64,000 bases of DNA from Limnothrix sp. BL-A-16 (GCA_041937175.2 CP166615.1:4320001-4384000), one strand, 5' to 3'. Numbered from the stretch's first letter, positions 1,881 to 42,922 are shown. The notes: generated from the letters alone by a model not told the origin. Made by a program: numbers and translations.

Positions 1881-4346
1881 CTACAAAAAATTCAGGGGAT
1901 CAACATCGATCGTGAGGCTGACACCGGGTAAGCAAGCCGATCGCACTTCCAGCAAATTGGCCGGGCGATCGCCCTCGGGGGGAATGCGGATCAGCAGTTG
2001 CCAGCGAAATCGATTGGCAATTCGCCCCACTTGCGCCCGCTCTGGCCCCAACAGATCGAAGGCGCGATCGCCCCGGGCCGTTTCCAATAGCGCCGCCACC
2101 TGCTCGGCACTGCGCCCCACCGCCGCCTCATCGGGGCCACTCAGCCGCAACAAGATCAGTTGTCCTACGGGCGGATAGTTGAGCGCCGCCCGCATCTCCC
2201 GTTCCTGCTCCAAAAAGCGGGGATAGTCGTAATTGGCCACTGCGCCGATCGCCGGGTGTTCAGGGCTGTAGGTTTGCAAAATCACCCGCCCCGGTTCCTC
2301 ACCGCGCCCGGCCCGCCCCGCCACCTGCAACAGGGTTTGCACCGCCCGCTCGCCGGCCCGCACATCGGACAGATTCAGTAACCCATCGGCGGCGATCGCT
2401 CCCACCAGTGTCACCTGCGGCAGATCAATCCCCTTGGTCAGCATTTGCGTTCCCACCAGCAAATCCGCCTCGCCTCGGGCAAAGCGATCGAGCAAAATCC
2501 GGTGGGCATCCTTGGTGCGGGTCGTGTCGCTGTCGTAGCGCAAAATTCGCAGGTCGGGCCATTGCCGCTCCAGTTCCCGCACCACCCGCTGCGTGCCGCT
2601 GCCGAAATGCTTCAGGTAGGGCGACCCACAGGCGGGACAGGCGGGCGGGTGCAGTTGCCCAAAGCCGCAAAAGTGGCAGCGCAGCAGGGGTTGCGCCGTT
2701 TCCCGTTGGTGGTGAAACGACAGGGACACATCGCAATGGGGGCACATCATCACATGGCCACAACTGCGACAGGAGACGAAGGTGCTGTGGCCCCGCCGTT
2801 GCACAAATAGGATTCCTTGGCGGCCGGCGGCGATCGCCTCATCGATCGCCCCTTGGAGCGATCGGCTAAAGATCGATCGATTGCCGTCCCGCAACTCCTG
2901 GCGCATATCCACCACCTCGACCGGCGGCAGGGGGCGACCATGCACCCGATCGGGCAGGGAGACATAGACTGATTGGCTCGTCCAGGTTTCCAACGACGGC
3001 GTGGCCGACCCCAACACCAACGGGCAACCCACCAAGCGCGATCGCCACTGGGCTACCTGTCTGGCGTGGTAGCAGGGCGTTGGGGAATCTTGCTTGAAGC
3101 TGGGATCATGCTCCTCATCGAGCAACATCAGACCCAAATTCGGCAGGGGCGCAAACACAGCCGATCGCGTGCCAATCACCACTTGGGGCGTGCCGTCGAG
3201 CATTTTGCGCCAAGTGTCGTAGCGCTCCCCGTCCGAGAGGCCGCTGTGGTAAACGCAAACCTGGGAGCCGAACCGCGCCCGGAAGCGATCGGTTAGCTGC
3301 GGCGTGAGGCCAATTTCCGGCACCAGCACCAATGCTGACTGACCCCGCGCCAACACCGGGGCGATCGCCTGGAGATACACCTCCGTTTTGCCGGAACCCG
3401 TCACCCCATGCAGCAGGGCTGTTTGGCCCGATTCCAAACCGTGGATCGTTTCCAGGGCGGTGGCTTGGGCCGGGGTCAGGATTTTGGGGCGATCGCGTTG
3501 GCCCGAGTCGTGCTGGTCGCCGCGCAAAATTTCCCGCGCCTCCAAAATTAGCCAGCCCTTTTCTTCGAGCGATCGCAAGGTGCCACTGCTGGTGCGCCCC
3601 AGGGCGATCAACTCCTGAGCTAGCAACTCCCCACCGCGCCGCTGCAAAATTCCGATGATTTCCCGTTGGCGCGGGGTTAGCGGTTCCCCTTCGCCAATCA
3701 AGATCGCCATCTGTTGGCGCTTGGGTTTCGGGGCGCTGGGCGATTCCAAATAGCTGACCAGCCAGCCGCGCCGCACCAAGTCCCGCAAGCCCCGATCTCC
3801 CCCGGGAAATTTCTGTTGCAGAAAGCGCCAACTGTAATCGCGTCCCGACTGCGATCGCAGCCATTGCCACAACCGCAGAGCGATCGGACTCAGCAGGGTT
3901 TCCGCCACGCCTGCCGCCGCCGTGGCCGGTAGCGGGTCTGCCAGCCGCACCCGCCGCGATGCCCGCCCCAACACCCCCGGCGGCAGGGCCACCCGCGCCA
4001 CCTGGATCAGCGACGCGCAATAGTAATCGGCGACCTGCGCCAACAGTTGCCAATAGTCGGGGGAAAACAGACCGCTGGCGACGACTCCTTCGACTTCCCG
4101 CAACCGATCGGGATCGATTCCCTCGGGCAACTGCTCCCAACAACGCAGGGCGATCGCCCCAACCGATCGCCCACCAAAGGGCACGGTCAGCACGTCCCCG
4201 GGCCCGATCGCCTGGTCTGCCCCGATCGTGTAGGTGTAGGCCTCGGTCACGCCGGGACAGTCCACCAACACTTCCACATAGCCCGTCGCGGCCCAGACCG
4301 GCGCGATCGGCGTTTTTCGTAATTCGGTTTCGAGCATTCGCCTCAC
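1881..4346 (-). CDS. priA: Primosomal protein N' (replication restart helicase)
   Basis: LHGVTGSGKTEVY, VLVPEIGLTPQ, DEEHD, four CxxC Zn motifs, GTQMLTKGIDLP, QVAGRAGR; exact start uncertain. Confidence 0.97.
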   Translation of the reverse strand: MRRMLETELRKTPIAPVWAATGYVEVLVDCPGVTEAYTYTIGADQAIGPGDVLTVPFGGRSVGAIALRCWEQLPEGIDPDRLREVEGVVASGLFSPDYWQLLAQVADYYCASLIQVARVALPPGVLGRASRRVRLADPLPATAAAGVAETLLSPIALRLWQWLRSQSGRDYSWRFLQQKFPGGDRGLRDLVRRGWLVSYLESPSAPKPKRQQMAILIGEGEPLTPRQREIIGILQRRGGELLAQELIALGRTSSGTLRSLEEKGWLILEAREILRGDQHDSGQRDRPKILTPAQATALETIHGLESGQTALLHGVTGSGKTEVYLQAIAPVLARGQSALVLVPEIGLTPQLTDRFRARFGSQVCVYHSGLSDGERYDTWRKMLDGTPQVVIGTRSAVFAPLPNLGLMLLDEEHDPSFKQDSPTPCYHARQVAQWRSRLVGCPLVLGSATPSLETWTSQSVYVSLPDRVHGRPLPPVEVVDMRQELRDGNRSIFSRSLQGAIDEAIAAGRQGILFVQRRGHSTFVSCRSCGHVMMCPHCDVSLSFHHQRETAQPLLRCHFCGFGQLHPPACPACGSPYLKHFGSGTQRVVRELERQWPDLRILRYDSDTTRTKDAHRILLDRFARGEADLLVGTQMLTKGIDLPQVTLVGAIAADGLLNLSDVRAGERAVQTLLQVAGRAGRGEEPGRVILQTYSPEHPAIGAVANYDYPRFLEQEREMRAALNYPPVGQLILLRLSGPDEAAVGRSAEQVAALLETARGDRAFDLLGPERAQVGRIANRFRWQLLIRIPPEGDRPANLLEVRSACLPGVSLTIDVDPLNFL

Positions 4347-35079: not shown

Positions 35080-35775
35080 ATGGGGAGTAAAGCGGTGCGG
35101 TCCAGGGATGAGGCGATCGGGACGGAATCGTTGCCCGATCGCCCCCTGGCCGACTCCATTCCTCCGGCTCCCGATCAATCCCCATGGACTGCGGGGGTGG
35201 ATGAGGTGGGCCGCGGAGCACTGTTTGGGCCCGTGGTGGCGGCGGCTGTGATTTTGACAGCCGAGGCGGAAAGCGACTTGCGAACTTTGGGCGTGCGGGA
35301 TAGCAAGCAACTCTCGGCTCGCCAACGCCAAGCCCTGGTGGAACCGATTCGCGATCGGGCGGTGGCCTGGGCGATCGCGGAAGCTTCCGTGGCCGAAATT
35401 GATCAACTCAATATTTTGCAAGCCACTTTGCTGGCCATGCGGCGGGCCCTGGAGCAATTGCATCCTCGCCCCGATCGCTGCCTGGTGGACGGCAATCGCC
35501 CCATTCCCAACTTGTTTTGCCCCCAAGAAACGCTCATTCAGGGCGATCGACAATCGATCGCGATCGCTGCCGCCAGCATTTTGGCGAAAGTTCACCGCGA
35601 TCAACAGATCATTGACTGCGCGGCACAATACCCGGGCTATGACCTAGCTGCCAACAAGGGCTATGGCACGGCGGCCCATCGGGCAGCCTTACAAACCCTT
35701 GGCCCCACGCCGCTCCATCGACGTTCTTTCGCACCCTGTCAGTTGACCCTAAATCTCAGTGAGCTTCCGAGATAG
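35080..35775 (+). CDS. rnhB: Ribonuclease HII
   Basis: AGVDEVGRGALFGPVVAAA, DSKQL, VDGN, AAASILAKVHRD, KGYGT..H, HRRSF. Confidence 0.97.
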   Translation: MGSKAVRSRDEAIGTESLPDRPLADSIPPAPDQSPWTAGVDEVGRGALFGPVVAAAVILTAEAESDLRTLGVRDSKQLSARQRQALVEPIRDRAVAWAIAEASVAEIDQLNILQATLLAMRRALEQLHPRPDRCLVDGNRPIPNLFCPQETLIQGDRQSIAIAAASILAKVHRDQQIIDCAAQYPGYDLAANKGYGTAAHRAALQTLGPTPLHRRSFAPCQLTLNLSELPR

Positions 35776-36334
35776 GGTCAGGATCTGCAAAAGCAATCTG
35801 GCGATAAATCGTTTTCACGGATAGGGTTAGATCGATCGCCCCTAGATTGATCGCGTCGTCTAGGCCATAGTCCGACAATACCCACTGGCCCCGATCGTTC
35901 CGTTCAAACACTTCAATGGCCGGGCGATCGACCTGCACCAAAATGTAGGTTTGCAGGGTGTCTAAACGGCGGTAGGCGGCAAACTTTGCCCCGCGATCGA
36001 AGGATTCCGTAGAGGGTGATAGGACTTCGACAATCAAGGATGGAAATTGGATGAAGCGCTCATCTTGGTCGCGATCGTCGCAGGTCACCACCAGATCGGG
36101 ATAGAAATACTTGCGCCCTGGAACTGCCTGCACTTTGATATCGGAAATATAGACCTCACAGGGGCGATCGGCGAGGGCTGCGAAAATGTTACCGGCGATG
36201 CGATTGTGCGATCGGGTGCTGCCGCTCATGGCGATCGGTTCGCCGTCCCAAAATTCGTGGCGTTCCGCTTGGATGGTTTCCCAGGCAAAGTATTCCTCAG
36301 CCGTCAGTAGCGGGCGATCGGGTAAGGCAACCAT
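35756..36334 (-). CDS. Uma2 family endonuclease
   Basis: RHEFWDGE..AMSG, FYPDLVVTCD, VEVLSPSTESFDRGAKF. Confidence 0.9.
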   Translation of the reverse strand: MVALPDRPLLTAEEYFAWETIQAERHEFWDGEPIAMSGSTRSHNRIAGNIFAALADRPCEVYISDIKVQAVPGRKYFYPDLVVTCDDRDQDERFIQFPSLIVEVLSPSTESFDRGAKFAAYRRLDTLQTYILVQVDRPAIEVFERNDRGQWVLSDYGLDDAINLGAIDLTLSVKTIYRQIAFADPDPISEAH

Positions 36335-36385
36335 GGGCAGCGATCGGGCGCGATCAGACCAACATCTAACTTCAGGATACAAAAC

Positions 36386-37685: not shown

Positions 37686-38264
37686 TTATTGGGATTCGCT
37701 AAACACGACGCGGCGATAAATTTGGGCGATCGGCAGGGTGACGGGCAAGGTTTTGAGGGCGATCGCCTGGGTGCGATCGCTGTAGTCACAAAATTGCCAA
37801 TTCGAGTCATCCAGCTTCCAAAAATGGGTGATGAAGGATTCATCTTGCCGAACCAACAGATATTCCGCAAACTCAGGAATCGATCGATAAAATCGAAACT
37901 TGTCAGCACGATCAAACAGTTCCGTAGAGGGCGACAACACCTCAACTAAAAAACAGGGATTCAGCACCTCATCATCCCGATCGTCATGCCGTTGGGGCAA
38001 TCCAGCAATCACCATCACATCGGGATAAGTTCCCCGTTGATAGGTCGGAATCCAGAGCCGTAGATCACTGTTAAAAACCTCAAACTGGGTTTGATCCAGT
38101 TGGCTAATCAATAAACTGCAAATCTCCGTTGCAATTCGGCTGTGATTAATTGACCCTCCCGGCATTTCCCAGATGACTCCATTGGCATATTCGTGACGTT
38201 GTTCCGATGTTTCCTCAAGCGATCGGTACTTAGCCAATGAATAGCGTTGTTCAATCGCTAGCAT
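37686..38264 (-). CDS. Uma2 family endonuclease
   Basis: RHEYANG..MPGGSINH, YPDVMVI, VEVLSPSTELFDRADKF. Confidence 0.9.
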   Translation of the reverse strand: MLAIEQRYSLAKYRSLEETSEQRHEYANGVIWEMPGGSINHSRIATEICSLLISQLDQTQFEVFNSDLRLWIPTYQRGTYPDVMVIAGLPQRHDDRDDEVLNPCFLVEVLSPSTELFDRADKFRFYRSIPEFAEYLLVRQDESFITHFWKLDDSNWQFCDYSDRTQAIALKTLPVTLPIAQIYRRVVFSESQ

Positions 38265-38271
38265 GATGTTT

Positions 38272-38895
38272 TTACCTCTCTAGATGATCGATAGTCTTCA
38301 AGATCACTTGAAAAATCCCTAGAATCGTTTGGATTTCTTTAAAATAATATTCATCTCGATCAATATAAACCGCGCGATCGCGCAGCTTCAGAAACTTCCA
38401 AGTTGTACCCGTGGTCACTACCCCATAAACCCAAGGCAGAGGACGATTTTCCCGTTCATTAAATAACCAAGCAGCGTACATCGTGGCAATGCATTGGCCC
38501 AAGCCCGCGACGATATCTTCTTTTTTCGCTTCCACAATGGCGATCGCGGGAGCAGCAATATACAGTTGCTCAGGACTCAGGCTCAAGAGGTAGTCACACT
38601 GACCGTATAGACCTCGCTTGCGATCGACCGTGAAACTCCGTCCCGAAAAAAGGCTAATTTGGGCATGAACCTGCTTACGTACCTCGGTCAAAATGGGTGC
38701 AATGATCCATTCTGATCGGGATTTTTCAGTATTAATGGCCAGGGCCATAGAAGTCCCTTCGGCCAGGGTTAATTCTAAATAAGGGCTAATGGTCACGGAT
38801 GGAATTTGGCTGAGATCAAAAAGTGATTGATCTTCAACTAAGGTGATGCCAAATGTTTCCTTGACGGTCTTAAGAGAAAACTTGCTGTAGGCCAT
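38272..38895 (-). CDS. Hypothetical PD-(D/E)XK-fold protein (HsdR N-terminal-like), paralog of 5350-5970
   Basis: MAYSKF, TEKSRSEWIIAPIL, GQCDY, IVEAKK, GLGQCIA, YGVVTTG..WKFL. Confidence 0.75.
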   Translation of the reverse strand: MAYSKFSLKTVKETFGITLVEDQSLFDLSQIPSVTISPYLELTLAEGTSMALAINTEKSRSEWIIAPILTEVRKQVHAQISLFSGRSFTVDRKRGLYGQCDYLLSLSPEQLYIAAPAIAIVEAKKEDIVAGLGQCIATMYAAWLFNERENRPLPWVYGVVTTGTTWKFLKLRDRAVYIDRDEYYFKEIQTILGIFQVILKTIDHLER

Positions 38896-39231: not shown

Positions 39232-40785
39232 ATGACCCAAACCACCGCAACCGACGCAAACCGCCCGATCGTGGTGATTGGGGCGGGAATTGGCGGCCTG
39301 ACCACGGCGGCCCTGCTGGCGCGACGGGGGCGATCGGTCAAGGTGTTTGATTTGGCGATCGTGCCGGGGGGCTGTGCATCCACCTTTCGGCGGCGGGGCT
39401 TCACCTTTGAGGTGGGCGCGACCCAGGTGGCGGGGTTGGAACCGGGCGGCATCCATCACCGGATTTTTGGCGAATTGGGCATCGAGCTGCCGGCCGCCCA
39501 GCCCTGCGATCCGGCCTGTGCGGTGTTTTTGCCGAGGGAAACGGAGCCGATTTCCGTGTGGCGCGACCCCGATCGCTGGCGGGCAGAGCGATCGCGGCAA
39601 TTTCCCGGGAGCGAACCCTTTTGGCGGCTGTTGGCGGATTTATTTCGCTATAGCTGGGAGTTTCAGGCGGGCGATCCGGTGTTGCCGCCGGGAAATGCTT
39701 GGGATGTGGCGCAACTGCTAAAGGCGGTGAAACCTAGCACCCTGCTGACGGCTCCCCATGCTTTTTCGACGGTGGGCGACCTGTTGCGGCGGCTGGGCTT
39801 GGCGGGCGATCGCCGCTTGAAAACCTTTTTGGATATGCAACTGAAGCTCTATTCCCAGGTGGGGGCGGACGAAACGGCCCTGCTCTACGCGGCGACAGCG
39901 CTGGGCCTGTCCCAGGAACCCTTTGGGCTGTACCACCTGGAGGGCAGTATGCAGGTATTGAGCGATCGCCTGTTGGAATCGTTAACCCGGGACGGCGGCC
40001 AGCTCCAGATGCGCCATCGGGTCGAGCGGATCATCACCGAACATGGCCAGACGACGGGTGTACTGGTTCGGAACCTGAAAACCGATGAGACCTGGATTGA
40101 ACCGGCGGCGGTGGTGGTGGCCAATGTGCCGATCCAGAACTTGACGGAGATGGTCAATTGGCCGAGCGATCGCCCCTGGTTCGATCGCCTGGCCACGGAT
40201 TTCTATCGATCGCGCGCCGAAAAACTGCCGGAACCCTCGGGCGCATTCGTGGTCTATTTGGGGGTCGATCGCGCCGCCCTACCCACCGACTGCCCACCCC
40301 ACCTGCAATTCCTCTACGACTGGGACGGCCCCGTGGGCGAAAACAACTCGCTGTTTGTGTCCGTCAGCCGCGAGGGTGATGGACGCGCCCCGGCCGGGAT
40401 GGCGACGATCACGGCTTCTTCCTTTGTGGATCCGCAGCCTTGGTATCGTTGCCGCGATCGGGCGGAGTACGAAGCCCTAAAAACCCGCTACACGGAAGAG
40501 GCGATCGAGAAGCTGGGCCGTTATTTCCAGCTTGATGCCGGGGCGATCGTCCATTGCGAAGCCGCCACCCCCCGCACCTTTGAAGACTTCACGGGCCGCA
40601 AGTTCGGCTACGTGGGCGGTGTGGGAATGCGCGTTTCGACCTTTGGCCCCTTCGCGATCGGGAATCGCACGCCGGTTCCAGGTCTCTGGCTGGTGGGCGA
40701 CTCCACCCACCCGGGCGAAGGCACAGCAGGCACGAGCTATTCCGCCCTCACCACCGTCCGCCAAATGACCGCCGCCGGGTTTTGA
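39232..40785 (+). CDS. crtD: Carotenoid C-3',4' desaturase
   Basis: VVIGAGIGGLT FAD motif, GGCASTFRRRGFTFEVGATQVAGLEPGGIH, QLKLYSQ, GDSTHPGEGTAG. Confidence 0.9.
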   Translation: MTQTTATDANRPIVVIGAGIGGLTTAALLARRGRSVKVFDLAIVPGGCASTFRRRGFTFEVGATQVAGLEPGGIHHRIFGELGIELPAAQPCDPACAVFLPRETEPISVWRDPDRWRAERSRQFPGSEPFWRLLADLFRYSWEFQAGDPVLPPGNAWDVAQLLKAVKPSTLLTAPHAFSTVGDLLRRLGLAGDRRLKTFLDMQLKLYSQVGADETALLYAATALGLSQEPFGLYHLEGSMQVLSDRLLESLTRDGGQLQMRHRVERIITEHGQTTGVLVRNLKTDETWIEPAAVVVANVPIQNLTEMVNWPSDRPWFDRLATDFYRSRAEKLPEPSGAFVVYLGVDRAALPTDCPPHLQFLYDWDGPVGENNSLFVSVSREGDGRAPAGMATITASSFVDPQPWYRCRDRAEYEALKTRYTEEAIEKLGRYFQLDAGAIVHCEAATPRTFEDFTGRKFGYVGGVGMRVSTFGPFAIGNRTPVPGLWLVGDSTHPGEGTAGTSYSALTTVRQMTAAGF

Positions 40786-40808
40786 TGCAGAGTTTAGCTA
40801 GAGCGATC
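40661..40808 (+). repeat. Copy 1 of a 148-bp direct repeat (crtD 3' end plus 23 bp downstream)
   Basis: Matches 42084-42231 with 3 mismatches by eye. Confidence 0.95.
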
Positions 40809-41376
40809 GCTCCAAAACTTCGTCAGTAACCTGAACCGATTGAAGAAACTCCATTAGTGCTTGAATCACCTTGGATTCACGCAAAGTTGCAATATCTTGG
40901 TCAGTCAAATTGATTAATAGATGGCTGATTAATAGATGGACTTGATTTTTTACATTTTCAGCCCGAAAAAACAACCGCTCTAAGACCTGTCTAGGCTGAT
41001 AAGTTGCCTGACTTAGGAGATCTGGTGCAGGTGCATAACCTAGCAGGCGCGTCAGCAAAGAAACATCGTGAAAAAAAATGCTTTCTAAAGCTGGAACTGC
41101 TGGAATAACCTTCACAGGCGTGTTGGCGGCAAGACTGTTGAGGAGTTCTTCAATATCTTTCACTCGTTGCTGAATTTGCTCAAGCACTACCGAATCTGAA
41201 TCAACTACAACTGCTACAGGAGATTGGCGGCGCACAACTAAAGAAAGAGCCAAAGACTTGAGAGCATATAGCCCGCCCGCAGCTACAATCTCAACATTTT
41301 TAGTTAACTCCGATGGCAGTACCTTTTTTAGTAATTGAACATCAACTTGCCTTTCACAAACAACATAAGTTTTCAT
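40798..41376 (-). CDS. Hypothetical protein with TOPRIM-like acidic motifs
   Basis: YVVCE..D, AGG, VAVVVDSDS (DxD), AVPALESIF; start overlaps the upstream gene's stop (ATGA). Confidence 0.65.
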   Translation of the reverse strand: MKTYVVCERQVDVQLLKKVLPSELTKNVEIVAAGGLYALKSLALSLVVRRQSPVAVVVDSDSVVLEQIQQRVKDIEELLNSLAANTPVKVIPAVPALESIFFHDVSLLTRLLGYAPAPDLLSQATYQPRQVLERLFFRAENVKNQVHLLISHLLINLTDQDIATLRESKVIQALMEFLQSVQVTDEVLERSL

Positions 41377-41927
41377 GGAATATCCCTCTCTCGAACATCA
41401 TAGTCAGGTAAACCGTCTTCTACGCATACTCGATATTTCAGCATTAGTAATTCGCAAATCGACTCCCTTTCTAATGCATACCTGATTTCTTCTCCGCTCC
41501 ACAACAGAATAGTTTGAGGCAATGAAAAATATGATAAATGCCGAGATGGGTCGGTAAATCCTGTTCTACTAAACACTAAGCCAAGAGTGCTTGCGGGGCG
41601 ACGTAGAAGCTGATTGCGGAGCTTGGCAATGGGTGCAATATCAACGTTAACCCTGTCTGCCAGATCCTTGCTTTCTACTAAGCAAGATAGCCCTGAGTAG
41701 TAAACCACGCCATCGACTTGTTCAAGCTCTTCGCCAAATAATCTGACGCTATAGGGATATTTCACTTCTGCGCCATCAAGTTGAAACGCACGAATAATCA
41801 GATATTCAAAAGCCTTTCCTGCATCCCAGCCTGGTGTTTGGCGAGCTTCGATATCAGCCCACAAGGATCTGAGGTCTTCCCACTCCAAGGATTGCACGAT
41901 CGTTTCGTACTGCTTTGCTGTGGTCAA
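41373..41927 (-). CDS. Restriction endonuclease-like protein (Mrr_cat-type PD-(D/E)XK)
   Basis: GKAFEYLI, EQVDG, LVESKD, GLVFSRTGFT. Confidence 0.8.
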   Translation of the reverse strand: MTTAKQYETIVQSLEWEDLRSLWADIEARQTPGWDAGKAFEYLIIRAFQLDGAEVKYPYSVRLFGEELEQVDGVVYYSGLSCLVESKDLADRVNVDIAPIAKLRNQLLRRPASTLGLVFSRTGFTDPSRHLSYFSLPQTILLWSGEEIRYALERESICELLMLKYRVCVEDGLPDYDVRERDIP

Positions 41928-42083
41928 TCCTGAGTCTCCAAGGCTTGACTACGGAATTGATGAATTGGGTTTAGGCTAATTATATAGCCAGGAATAATCA
42001 TGCTTTTGGGCTATTCCAGTTCAAGCGGTGTTGTATCAATTTATTGAGTCATCGTTGCGTCTGCATGGGTAGCATGGGAATCA

Positions 42084-42231
42084 GGAATCGCACGCCGGTT
42101 CTGGGTCTCTGGCTGGTGGGCGACTCCACCCACCCGGGCGAAGGCACAGCGGGCACGAGCTATTCCGCCCTCACCACCGTCCGCCAAATGACCGCCGCCG
42201 GGTTTTGATGCAGAGTTTAGCTAGAGCGATC
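42084..42231 (+). repeat. Copy 2 of the 148-bp crtD 3'-end direct repeat (crtD fragment)
   Basis: Encodes NRTPVLGLWLVGDSTHPGEGTAGTSYSALTTVRQMTAAGF-stop. Confidence 0.95.
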
Positions 42232-42280
42232 ATCATGAACACTAAACCAAGGGCGCTCGCGAGGCGAAGCAACACTACCT

Positions 42281-42328
42281 TTTAAGTGGAAAAGATTTAT
42301 GCAATTTAAGTGGAAAAGATTTATGCAA
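42281..42328. repeat. Perfect 24-bp tandem duplication
   Basis: TTTAAGTGGAAAAGATTTATGCAA x2. Confidence 0.9.
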
Positions 42329-42451
42329 TTCTCGTTGGGGAAGCTGGCACACCTGCGGCATCCAAAGATCAGCCTGAAACGATCCTGAGACGATGACGAT
42401 CGCCCTGTGGATCGATCGCGCCTTTTTAACCCTGAACCGTTACCCAGCGCC

Positions 42452-42922
42452 ATGATTGAGGAATCACAACCCAACACTCCGTTTTGGCAAGGAATTGAGG
42501 AATTTAATCGTGGAGAGTTTTATGCTTGCCATGACACGATCGAGGCGTTGTGGGTGGTGGCAAATGAGCCGGAGCGCACGTTTTATCAAGGAGTTTTGCA
42601 AGTGGCGGTGGCGCTCCATCACCTCAGCAATTTGAATTGGCGTGGAGCGGCTATTTTGTTGGGTGAAGGGTTAAGCCGCTTGAATAAATATGACGATCAC
42701 TACAGTGGAATTGATGTAAACCAGTTCATTGCCCAGGTGGCGGATGTTTTGCACTTCGTGCAAGTGATGGGGCCCGATCGGGTAGAAACTGCCGCGATCG
42801 CCTTGGGATTACGAACTGGGTCGCTTCCTGTGGAGTTGGGAAGTTTGGAATCATTTCCTCAGCAATCTTTGCCGCGTATCCTGCCGGCCGCCCAAGCCTG
42901 CTCGGGAGAAGAAACCCCGTAA
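42452..42922 (+). CDS. DUF309 domain protein
   Basis: FNRGEFYACHDTIEALW, FYQGVLQVAVALHH, N.RGA. Confidence 0.9.
   Translation: MIEESQPNTPFWQGIEEFNRGEFYACHDTIEALWVVANEPERTFYQGVLQVAVALHHLSNLNWRGAAILLGEGLSRLNKYDDHYSGIDVNQFIAQVADVLHFVQVMGPDRVETAAIALGLRTGSLPVELGSLESFPQQSLPRILPAAQACSGEETP

Follow-up and report, generated by a model that had tools for sequence, protein, structure and literature searches.

The locus described here raises the question of how a pair of genes that brings no recombination enzyme could come to lie between two copies of a host gene end. It is located in a 64,000-nucleotide (nt) stretch of the genome of Limnothrix sp. BL-A-16 (GCA_041937175.2, CP166615.1:4320001-4384000), which is called the window below and whose own numbering is used unless a genome coordinate is given. 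There, the 3′ end of a crtD-like gene is present twice as a direct repeat, and the two copies enclose a low-GC cassette with two predicted nuclease genes, A and B. The locus very probably belongs to the general class of insertion-linked long duplications without a recombinase of their own. Regarding the process behind it, the evidence leaves an evenly balanced case for one specific mechanism, in which host recombination would have acted on incoming DNA with the crtD-like gene end as homology anchor and a HIP1 core as joint. HIP1, the octamer GCGATCGC, has been known since the 1990s with no agreed function, and a mechanism was never worked out for insertions with long target duplications, a class recognised since 2000.

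The duplicated gene end and its cargo

Repeat search and pairwise alignment placed the two copies at 40657-40808 and 42080-42231, forming a 152-nt direct repeat with 4 mismatches (97% identity) and a spacing of 1423. With a stricter start at 40661, the repeat is 148 nt long and has 3 mismatches, which is how the first-pass annotation, made from this DNA alone, had described it; its account of a duplicated crtD 3′ end plus 23 bp was borne out by repeat search, alignment and self-BLAST alike. This pair is the single long local direct repeat in the window, and since self-BLAST of the whole 4.56-Mb genome gave a copy number of exactly 2, it is not a dispersed repeat. The duplicated gene (39232-40785, plus strand) encodes an intact desaturase/oxidase of 517 amino acids, dependent on flavin adenine dinucleotide (FAD) and named crtD-like solely from its Pfam matches to NAD_binding_8 (E 9e-15) and Amino_oxidase (E 2e-12). 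Its DNA is about 93% identical to that of the orthologues in two genomes, G001 and G002 (the latter of the same genus), and in a metagenome contig, L059. Copy 1, on the plus strand, consists of the last 129 nt of the gene including the stop codon (125 nt from the strict start) followed by a 23-bp spacer (40786-40808, plus strand), which is present in both copies. Copy 2, on the same strand, holds the 3′ fragment and the spacer, ends in GCGATC-ATCATG and is non-functional. The duplication leaves the crtD-like gene whole.

Both borders of copy 1 are marked by HIP1-type sequence, as had been pointed out in the earlier annotation. GCGATCG at 40654-40660 directly precedes the copy, and its end falls within a full HIP1 octamer (40803-40810) that spans the junction with the cargo, where GAGCGATC-GCTC makes up a 12-nt palindrome; in copy 2 the octamer is broken (GCGATC-AT). 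The inner DNA is 1271 bp long and has a GC content of 0.436, against 0.578 in the flanks. No HIP1 is found between 40810 and 42794, and the window holds 89 in total (shuffle mean 2.1). The cargo is AT-rich, about 1.27 kb long and free of HIP1, in agreement with the annotation. At the genome rate of 1.15 per kb, about 1.5 octamers would be expected in 1.27 kb, and because the chance of none is about 0.23, a HIP1-free cargo is a weak point when taken alone.

The mismatches between the copies (G/A, C/T, A/G and A/G) run in both directions. Compared with the relatives, copy 1 has two private changes, both synonymous, and copy 2 has a Pro-to-Leu change and a change at its border, while lineage-specific bases are common to both. 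The 23-bp spacer is probably native target sequence, from which the last codons of gene B are now read. This is suggested by short matches: G001 has CTAGAGTGAG where the window spacer has CTAGAGCGATC, and a related spacer adjoins gene B in L059. A diversity-generating retroelement was rejected as the source of the repeat, there being no open reading frame (ORF) for a reverse transcriptase and no adenine specificity in the mismatches. A transposon or insertion sequence was also rejected: no transposase is present, the window repeat search found no inverted repeats at the cassette ends, and the duplications of such cassettes are variable, at 60-160 nt.

The probability that the repeat is an assembly artefact or a chance repeat is practically negligible. 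The general risk of repeat mis-assembly is the one point in favor of an artefact; against it, the copies differ at 4 positions, the genome assembly is 100% complete in 2 contigs, and contigs of all four sequencing runs consulted hold both junctions, the cargo adjoining the end of copy 1 on one side and the start of copy 2 on the other. Three of the runs are lake metagenomes from separate studies, and the fourth is labelled as an organism. With 31-letter words, run contigs are expected to break off within the repeat, and they do; each junction is seen, with no contig spanning both copies; for example, X11 record 12 covers 40779-42108. Since these contigs differ from the window by 0.6-2.3% and both junctions are found in every run, the structure is real and fixed in a diverged population.

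Both cargo genes lie on the minus strand and overlap by 4 nt. Gene A (41373-41927, 184 amino acids) is predicted to encode a PD-(D/E)XK restriction-endonuclease-like protein from its modelled structure, its residues and a weak Pfam match, namely Mrr_cat at E 1.3e-3 and 19.3 bits, under the 21-bit gathering cut-off. Residues D72, E85 and K87 are invariant in 25 sequences, and the model, with a predicted local distance difference test (pLDDT) score of 90.8, matches MspJI, AF1548, HindIII, the small subunit of R.BspD6I, AspBHI and McrC in Foldseek. The predicted protein is thus like the Mrr/MspJI-type (type IV) endonucleases in its PD-(D/E)XK core with D..ExK, but differs from them in its score below the Mrr_cat cut-off and in the absence of a recognisable DNA-modification reader domain.

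Gene B (40798-41376, 192 amino acids) is predicted to encode a stand-alone OLD-type Toprim protein. In the AlphaFold model (pLDDT 92.5), the whole protein is made up of a Toprim domain and helices without an ATPase domain, and the top Foldseek matches in the PDB are the C-terminal regions of class 2 OLD proteins (6njv and 6nk8, E 1e-4 to 6e-4, TM 0.54-0.55) and GajA (8j4t). It is therefore like class 2 OLD proteins and the GajA protein of Gabija in the Toprim and helical region, whereas the ATPase domain that defines OLD proteins is missing. Of 26 sequences, at least 90% retain E8 and most have the D59-x-D61 motif. The last codons and stop of gene B (..ERSL) lie inside copy 1, a feature that the annotation had singled out. 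The location is correct, but the ..ERS(L/P) end is common to the closest homologues and is not peculiar to the junction.

No Pfam or NCBIfam family was found for gene B, and PADLOC gave only HEC-01B at E 0.03; for gene A, PADLOC gave nothing and NCBIfam nothing meaningful. Widely scattered and unnamed, this pair of predicted nucleases is absent from every defence catalogue searched. The A/B module was probably acquired horizontally and is predicted to be a small defence or addiction module. A 183-amino-acid relative of gene B (P0019) is labelled in a public source as '5S rRNA maturation endonuclease (ribonuclease M5)', a Toprim enzyme; the label agrees with the fold and is probably naming by domain only.

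Neither the cargo nor the 24 further ORFs across 25-56 kb of the window gave a match to an integrase or transposase family (none within 14 kb), as the annotation had stated for a recombinase gene, and an integrase-mediated element was rejected, with no tyrosine or serine recombinase in or beside the cassette. No methyltransferase is encoded in the cargo.

The closest known system is the insertion with long target duplication, first reported by Nobusato et al. 2000 (cited in PMC2853133). In the accessible part of Furuta et al. 2010 (PMC2853133), such insertions are described for restriction–modification units of types I-IV in several phyla, Microcystis included. The duplications reported there are 46-423 bp long and variable, occur in two copies per genome and may overlap the 3′ end of a gene; the inserts have no mobility genes, are often lower in GC and show gene fusion at the junction, and no mechanism is known for them. 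The window locus is alike in its small nuclease-bearing unit, its lack of integrase and transposase, its long two-copy host repeats and its low GC. Its 152-nt repeat exceeds the >30-bp criterion of that study, and the cassette (1.27 kb, two genes, no mobility family) lies within the <20-kb criterion. It differs in having a Toprim protein as the second gene, no clean empty site for the crtD locus and no methyltransferase: the first screen of Furuta et al. required restriction and modification genes together, a pair that is absent here, while type IV cases were accepted in their second screen. In addition, toxin–antitoxin and other non-restriction cargo is found here in the same arrangement, and an excess of HIP1 at the borders, described below, is not mentioned in the portion of PMC2853133 available. 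The insertion class is already known; what is new is cargo other than a restriction–modification pair, toxin–antitoxin cargo and the HIP1 border excess.

HIP1 cores at the borders of long repeats

The whole genome was scanned for repeats of 50-450 nt with at least 84% identity, at most 3 copies and a separation of 300-8000 bp, which gave 26 local repeat pairs with 48 unique borders. Of these 48, 17 have a CGATCG edge no more than 3 nt away, against a fraction of 0.129 under a local null in which the same borders were shifted by 25-400 nt (P 6e-5); this 48-border set is the unbiased one. Duplication borders are thus found at HIP1 cores about 3 times as often as expected, which links HIP1 to long target duplications. 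When the 905 six-mers near the borders were scanned, CGATCG came out on top (P 2.5e-5, Bonferroni 0.023), followed by sub-words of HIP1. The enrichment was replicated at comparable junctions in loci of other genomes (11 pairs, 20 borders), with CGATCG at 5/20 against 0.036 (P 6e-4) and GATC at 9/20 against 0.08 (P 1e-5). Examples are the sequences ..CCGCGATC in locus L022 and ..CGCGATCG in locus L035, each just before the repeat.

Eight of the 26 pairs were taken as low-GC cargo events, and the other rows include tandem paralogues. The crtD event (start at 4360657 on contig C1; 152 nt of the crtD-like 3′ end around genes A and B) is joined by seven more; a scan for other gene-3′-end duplications around low-GC cargo had been suggested in the annotation. 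Two enclose toxin–antitoxin-type pairs, a 150-nt repeat at 1502919 with MNT and HepT and a 252-nt repeat at 3615161 with an antitoxin and PIN pair. At 3866683, 319 nt of the trmFO 5′ end surround an IS5 transposase, a HindVP endonuclease and a C5 methylase, and at 4194339, 60 nt of the thrS 3′ end surround an AAA_15/21 ATPase and a 215-amino-acid protein. The remaining three are 112 nt of the 3′ end of a PDDEXK_2 gene with DUF6155 (3789430), 67 nt with a Coq4-like gene (2922113) and 222 nt with a multi-gene insert (3430671). The same process appears to move toxin–antitoxin and defence modules besides restriction systems.

With the crtD event left out, 6 of the 14 borders of the seven other events are at CGATCG (P 0.004). 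The crtD event itself has ..GCGATC at its right border and GCGATC(G) before its left one. Event 1502919 has CGATCGCC at both ends, event 3430671 begins with the complete octamer and event 3615161 with GATCGC, event 3789430 ends in GCGATC, and the thrS event ends in the complete octamer. For the thrS event, a clean empty site is present in G002, where the flanking alignments overlap by 61 nt, corresponding to one target copy, with HIP1 on its right. The PIN-pair event is whole in G002 (L054, G000:C1:3613001-3618000, against L072, G002:C23), with an overall identity of 93%, and its two repeat copies within G000 are 96% alike, which suggests that gene conversion or constraint keeps such repeats alike. 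At the MNT/HepT and trmFO sites, G001 and G002 carry other cargo, and no synteny was found for the DUF6155 site. Elsewhere in the genome, at G000:C1:1601284-1608694, overlapping repeats of 92-315 nt (88-97% identity) surround DNA of very low GC (0.39-0.42), which may be another multi-cassette array.

One process that would place HIP1 at such borders is a pair of staggered single-strand breaks on opposite strands, at nearby HIP1/GATC cores, leaving overhangs of 60-320 nt to which foreign DNA is ligated and whose fill-in creates the duplication. It is compatible with the thrS empty site, a single target copy with a HIP1 right boundary, and with the position of the borders, since both lie no more than 3-4 nt from GATC in 3 of the 8 events (the crtD event included) and one border does so in 4 more, several of them exactly at the end of ..GATC or the start of GATC... 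It is nevertheless quite unlikely. The offset to GATC ranges from -1 to +3, some borders have no GATC, and copy 2 starts with AATCA and not with GATCG. We know of no HIP1-specific nickase. In the accessible text of Kamoku and Nielsen (bioRxiv 10.1101/2024.09.10.611283), HIP1 is not part of a native restriction system in Synechococcus PCC 7002.

Recombination at HIP1 has been described in other settings. According to the available parts of the sources, HIP1 has been linked to site-specific and illegitimate recombination (PMC4390886), including plasmid recombination at the octamer in Synechococcus PCC 7002 (Akiyama 1998, cited in PMC4390886/PMC5861425), HIP1-promoted excision between cloned copies (Robinson 1997, cited in PMC4390886) and insertion of SDR5 inside HIP1 (Elhai 2008, cited in PMC4390886/PMC5861425). 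It is also said, in the portions consulted, to raise integration in transformation (bioRxiv 10.1101/2024.09.10.611283; also PMC13756078). These reports are alike in that DNA is joined at HIP1 or its CGATCG core, but they concern plasmids, cloned constructs and a small repeat element, whereas natural chromosomal cassette insertions with long duplications are dealt with here, and the joints lie close to the core without a single fixed bond. A full-text literature search, with subscription journals outside its scope, turned up no article in which the borders of long target duplications are assigned to HIP1.

The site and the cassette in other genomes

Four states of the site were found among lineages whose crtD-like genes are about 93% identical. 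In G001 the site is empty (crtD-like gene, 88 bp, rph) and the synteny differs from that of the window. In G002, the crtD-like gene is followed by a 4.66-kb insert and then by DUF309, with no repeat and a single crtD-like end. L059 combines G001-type neighbours with the same cassette as the window (gene A 95% identical in protein and 86% in DNA). The site just after the crtD-like gene is a recurrent insertion hot spot. The comparison of the crtD-DUF309 interval proposed in the annotation gave different cargo, in G002, but no empty site with conserved synteny.

Homology between G002 and the window stops exactly at the crtD-like stop codon, and no crtD remnant was found at the far end of the G002 insert, where only chance matches of up to 11 nt occur. 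The insert (L014 3634-8294, G002:C5) encodes a 1401-amino-acid protein convergent with the crtD-like gene, whose sole match is a weak one to AAA_16.

In L059, the gene B end and the related spacer are joined, as in the window, to a crtD-end remnant of 23 nt (21/23 identical), while the far flank differs. On that far side, likeness to G001 resumes exactly at CGATCGCC, and no crtD fragment is present on the A side. Because the L059 cassette is joined to the crtD end in the same way and has a different far flank, homology guidance by crtD is plausible. A B-side junction common to two lineages with different far flanks fits either a cassette that moved with part of crtD attached or an old insertion in a region that was later rearranged. 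Integration guided by homology or by HIP1, as the annotation had suggested, is in this respect partly upheld: homology guidance is plausible from the L059 junction and HIP1 is in excess at repeat borders, but the cassette edges themselves are not enriched in HIP1. Between the whole crtD-like gene and the remnant, L059 also has a 666-bp segment (3225-3940) with a 114-amino-acid ORF of no known family, which is a further, nested insertion that duplicated 23 nt of the crtD end.

The same junctions bear on the main rival route, along the lines of the Campbell-type integration cited in the annotation, in which a circle of cargo and one 148-152-bp crtD segment, excised earlier from a donor via short repeats or HIP1, would have entered the crtD end of a related genome by a single RecA crossover. 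The observed layout is exactly the product of such a Campbell-type crossover. Moreover, the 23-bp spacer in copy 2 also adjoins gene B, as expected if it was copied after the cassette sat beside crtD, the cassette lies beside crtD in two lineages with different far flanks, the cargo's far end has the GGGAATC that also occurs at 40660-40666, and HIP1-promoted excision is on record in the work of Robinson cited above. Several observations make this route unlikely all the same. L059 has no crtD fragment on the A side, an extra AGGAATC at the joint is unexpected from a simple GGGAATC-mediated circle, and the 60-nt thrS repeat would be very short homology for RecA. In addition, neither a circle junction nor a joint skipping the cargo (40809-42231) was found in the four runs, a result that is uninformative on excision since contigs drop rare forms. 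The sole joints listed in the runs fall inside the crtD-like gene and were taken as homologues of other organisms.

Relatives of gene A were found in 33 genome loci, mostly in cyanobacteria of many families, and a further genome, G025, adds one; outside the cyanobacteria, the loci are single ones from Gemmatales, Isosphaeraceae, Anaerolineae and Bacteroidia. Gene B is located 3′ of gene A in 30 of the 33. Over 35 contexts, the conserved DNA comprises the two genes and 15-60 bp upstream; only close relatives have similar flanks. The 102 nearest ORFs in 29 other loci include no integrase and are mostly housekeeping genes; the second neighbours include one IS66 transposase and one TnpB-like protein.

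Tight bracketing repeats of 60-160 nt surround the cassette in 5 of the 35 contexts, each made of a different host sequence, whereas random 1.15-kb segments of the Limnothrix genome are bracketed likewise in 195 of 200,000 cases. In the window it is the crtD-like end (152 nt), in L019 an intergenic stretch (159 nt, 82% identity), in L022 a stretch beside a Uma2 gene (60 nt), and in L035 a 102-nt repeat with the last 95 nt of a pyridoxamine-phosphate oxidase (pdxH-type) gene. In G025 it is a DUF2442 gene (116-141 nt), of which three copies also enclose BrnTA and VapBC pairs. No common target motif is evident in the five duplicated sequences.

These repeats, far more frequent than around random segments, could also be read as the result of self-driven mobility, nuclease A and/or B cutting the target and so promoting the insertion of the cassette, a behaviour suggested earlier for restriction–modification systems and homing endonucleases. 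Both cargo proteins have predicted nuclease folds with the catalytic residues kept, and Furuta et al. propose, in the accessible part of PMC2853133, that double-strand breakage by restriction enzymes underlies such insertions. However, similar repeats surround cargo without DNA endonucleases (MNT/HepT, the PIN pair, DUF6155 and the Coq4-like gene), the cassette has no terminal inverted repeats, and no evident motif unites the five targets, which makes this explanation very unlikely.

A decayed integrative element, whose repeats would be attL and attR and whose integrase was later deleted or acts in trans, is highly improbable. Elements that enter gene 3′ ends and bring a replacement end leave repeats of this kind, and integrase-borne islands such as the tycheposons of Prochlorococcus enter gene or tRNA 3′ ends and restore them. 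The window locus is like such islands in the 3′-end duplication that keeps the gene whole, and the arrays with partial copies in L017, where cargo is separated by fragments of one gene, are a further likeness. The 1.27 kb are filled by two genes, however, no integrase was found here or beside the cassette in the 29 other contexts, no tRNA gene is present, and the length and sequence of the repeat differ in every context.

Three of these loci showed further features. In L017 (5486-9007, G025:C4), three partial or whole DUF2442 copies (repeats of 116-320 nt, 85-90% identity) separate the A/B cassette from a block of VapBC-like and BrnT/BrnA genes, an arrangement resembling an integrase-free cassette array. 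In L022 (7233-8962), a small ORF and a Fic/DOC-family gene lie between two copies (93% identity) of the 3′ 246 nt of a Uma2 gene; the A/B cassette, with 60-nt repeats of its own, is directly adjacent. In L025 (5945-7130, from an uncultured cyanobacterium), one full HIP1 precedes gene A by about 50 nt and a second follows the gene B stop at a distance of 6 nt, exactly where likeness to other cassettes ends; this is the single case with HIP1 at both cassette edges, and an IS66 transposase lies 1.3 kb away.

A possible route of insertion and the surroundings of the cassette

The mechanism considered at the outset, host recombination of incoming DNA, can be set out in steps. The DNA would most likely have been taken up by transformation, and host recombination would have acted on it without any enzyme of the element. 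One side would have been held by homology to the crtD-like end. The other end would have been joined illegitimately, through a short stretch of matching bases near a HIP1 core; this joint would lie 148-152 nt upstream of where the cassette was inserted. If this upstream joint lay on a second chromosome copy, the product would be a whole crtD-like gene, the cargo and a crtD 3′ fragment, as found. A joint downstream of the anchor would replace a few bases, as in L059 compared with G001, whereas an upstream one would duplicate the stretch in between, as in the window. The cassette-free form of the site is predicted to read crtD, 23 bp and then ATCATGAAC... The order of events, transformation, the one-sided homology and HIP1 as the joint are all inferred.

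This scheme has a precedent in homology-facilitated illegitimate recombination, which de Vries and Wackernagel in 2002 and others reportedly described in natural transformation, with one homologous anchor, one microhomology joint and host enzymes only. L059 compared with G001 has this layout, with crtD as the anchor and the far joint at the resumption point given above. The products reported are said to carry deletions of recipient DNA and not duplications; the duplication here needs a joint upstream of the anchor end, and such a joint needs a second chromosome copy.

A broader proposal, put forward here tentatively, is that the HIP1 core (CGATCG) serves as a preferred joint for recombinase-free foreign DNA in HIP1-rich cyanobacteria, where small defence, restriction and toxin–antitoxin cassettes would travel with some host flank, be anchored by homology to a conserved gene end and be closed at a HIP1 core. 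If it is true, HIP1 would gain a role in illegitimate, homology-facilitated integration, and a mechanism would be supplied for the insertion with long target duplication, with duplications arising when the joint lies upstream of the anchor. It would also explain the spread of recombinase-free cassettes among cyanobacteria and their seats at the ends of conserved genes.

A number of observations weigh against this mechanism and the proposed role of HIP1. The joint on the A side, GGGAATC-A-GGAATCGC, departs from a simple single-copy microhomology joint. Among the genomes and runs examined (G001, G002 and the four runs), none has a clean empty site between crtD and DUF309: G002 has other cargo, G001 differs in synteny and the four runs all carry the cassette. 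The copies differ at 4 of 129 positions, the same as either copy does from G002, and since the 252-nt PIN-pair repeat is common to G002 and its copies are yet so alike, repeat divergence cannot date the crtD event, nor can it separate a donor/recipient pair from duplication in place. Transformation and polyploidy of the organism are assumptions. Regarding HIP1, the eight low-GC events were picked by inspection, about two thirds of the borders have no HIP1 core nearby, and the variable offset to GATC defines no single cut site. HIP1 as a fixed end of the cassette was rejected, CGATCG lying near the upstream edge in 3 of 32 loci against 5.4 expected and near the downstream edge in 4 against 4.4. 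Moreover, 30 of the 35 contexts of the cassette have no bracketing repeat at all.

The DNA on the A side of the cassette differs from that of other loci. The 152 nt upstream of gene A (41928-42079) end in ..CATGGGAATC, which adjoins copy 2, and only the first 20 nt or so are common to other cassette copies; the other 133 nt (41947-42079) gave no match elsewhere in the genome or in the examined loci, and neither did the 73 nt that follow copy 2. Downstream of copy 2 (42232-42328), 49 nt unique to the genome are followed by a 24-bp unit in two tandem copies (42281-42328), TTTAAGTGGAAAAGATTTATGCAA, which is present as a single copy in three of the four runs and as one diverged copy in G002, whose homology resumes at 42305. 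The native downstream neighbour is a DUF309 gene (42407-42922, plus strand; Pfam DUF309, E 6e-24) with 93% identity to G002.

No tRNA gene was found in 30-52 kb of the window and no Rfam family at gathering scores in 37-45 kb; terminator-like sites numbered 0, and the 2 promoter-like sites were not above shuffles. Upstream of the crtD-like gene, a low-GC pair (0.41-0.47) is located at 37686-38895 and 35759-36382, encoding a Uma2-family endonuclease and a 207-amino-acid protein with a weak PDDEXK_12 match, with a second Uma2 gene 1.3 kb further. L059 and G002 carry this pair too, which makes it older than the far-side junction of the cassette.

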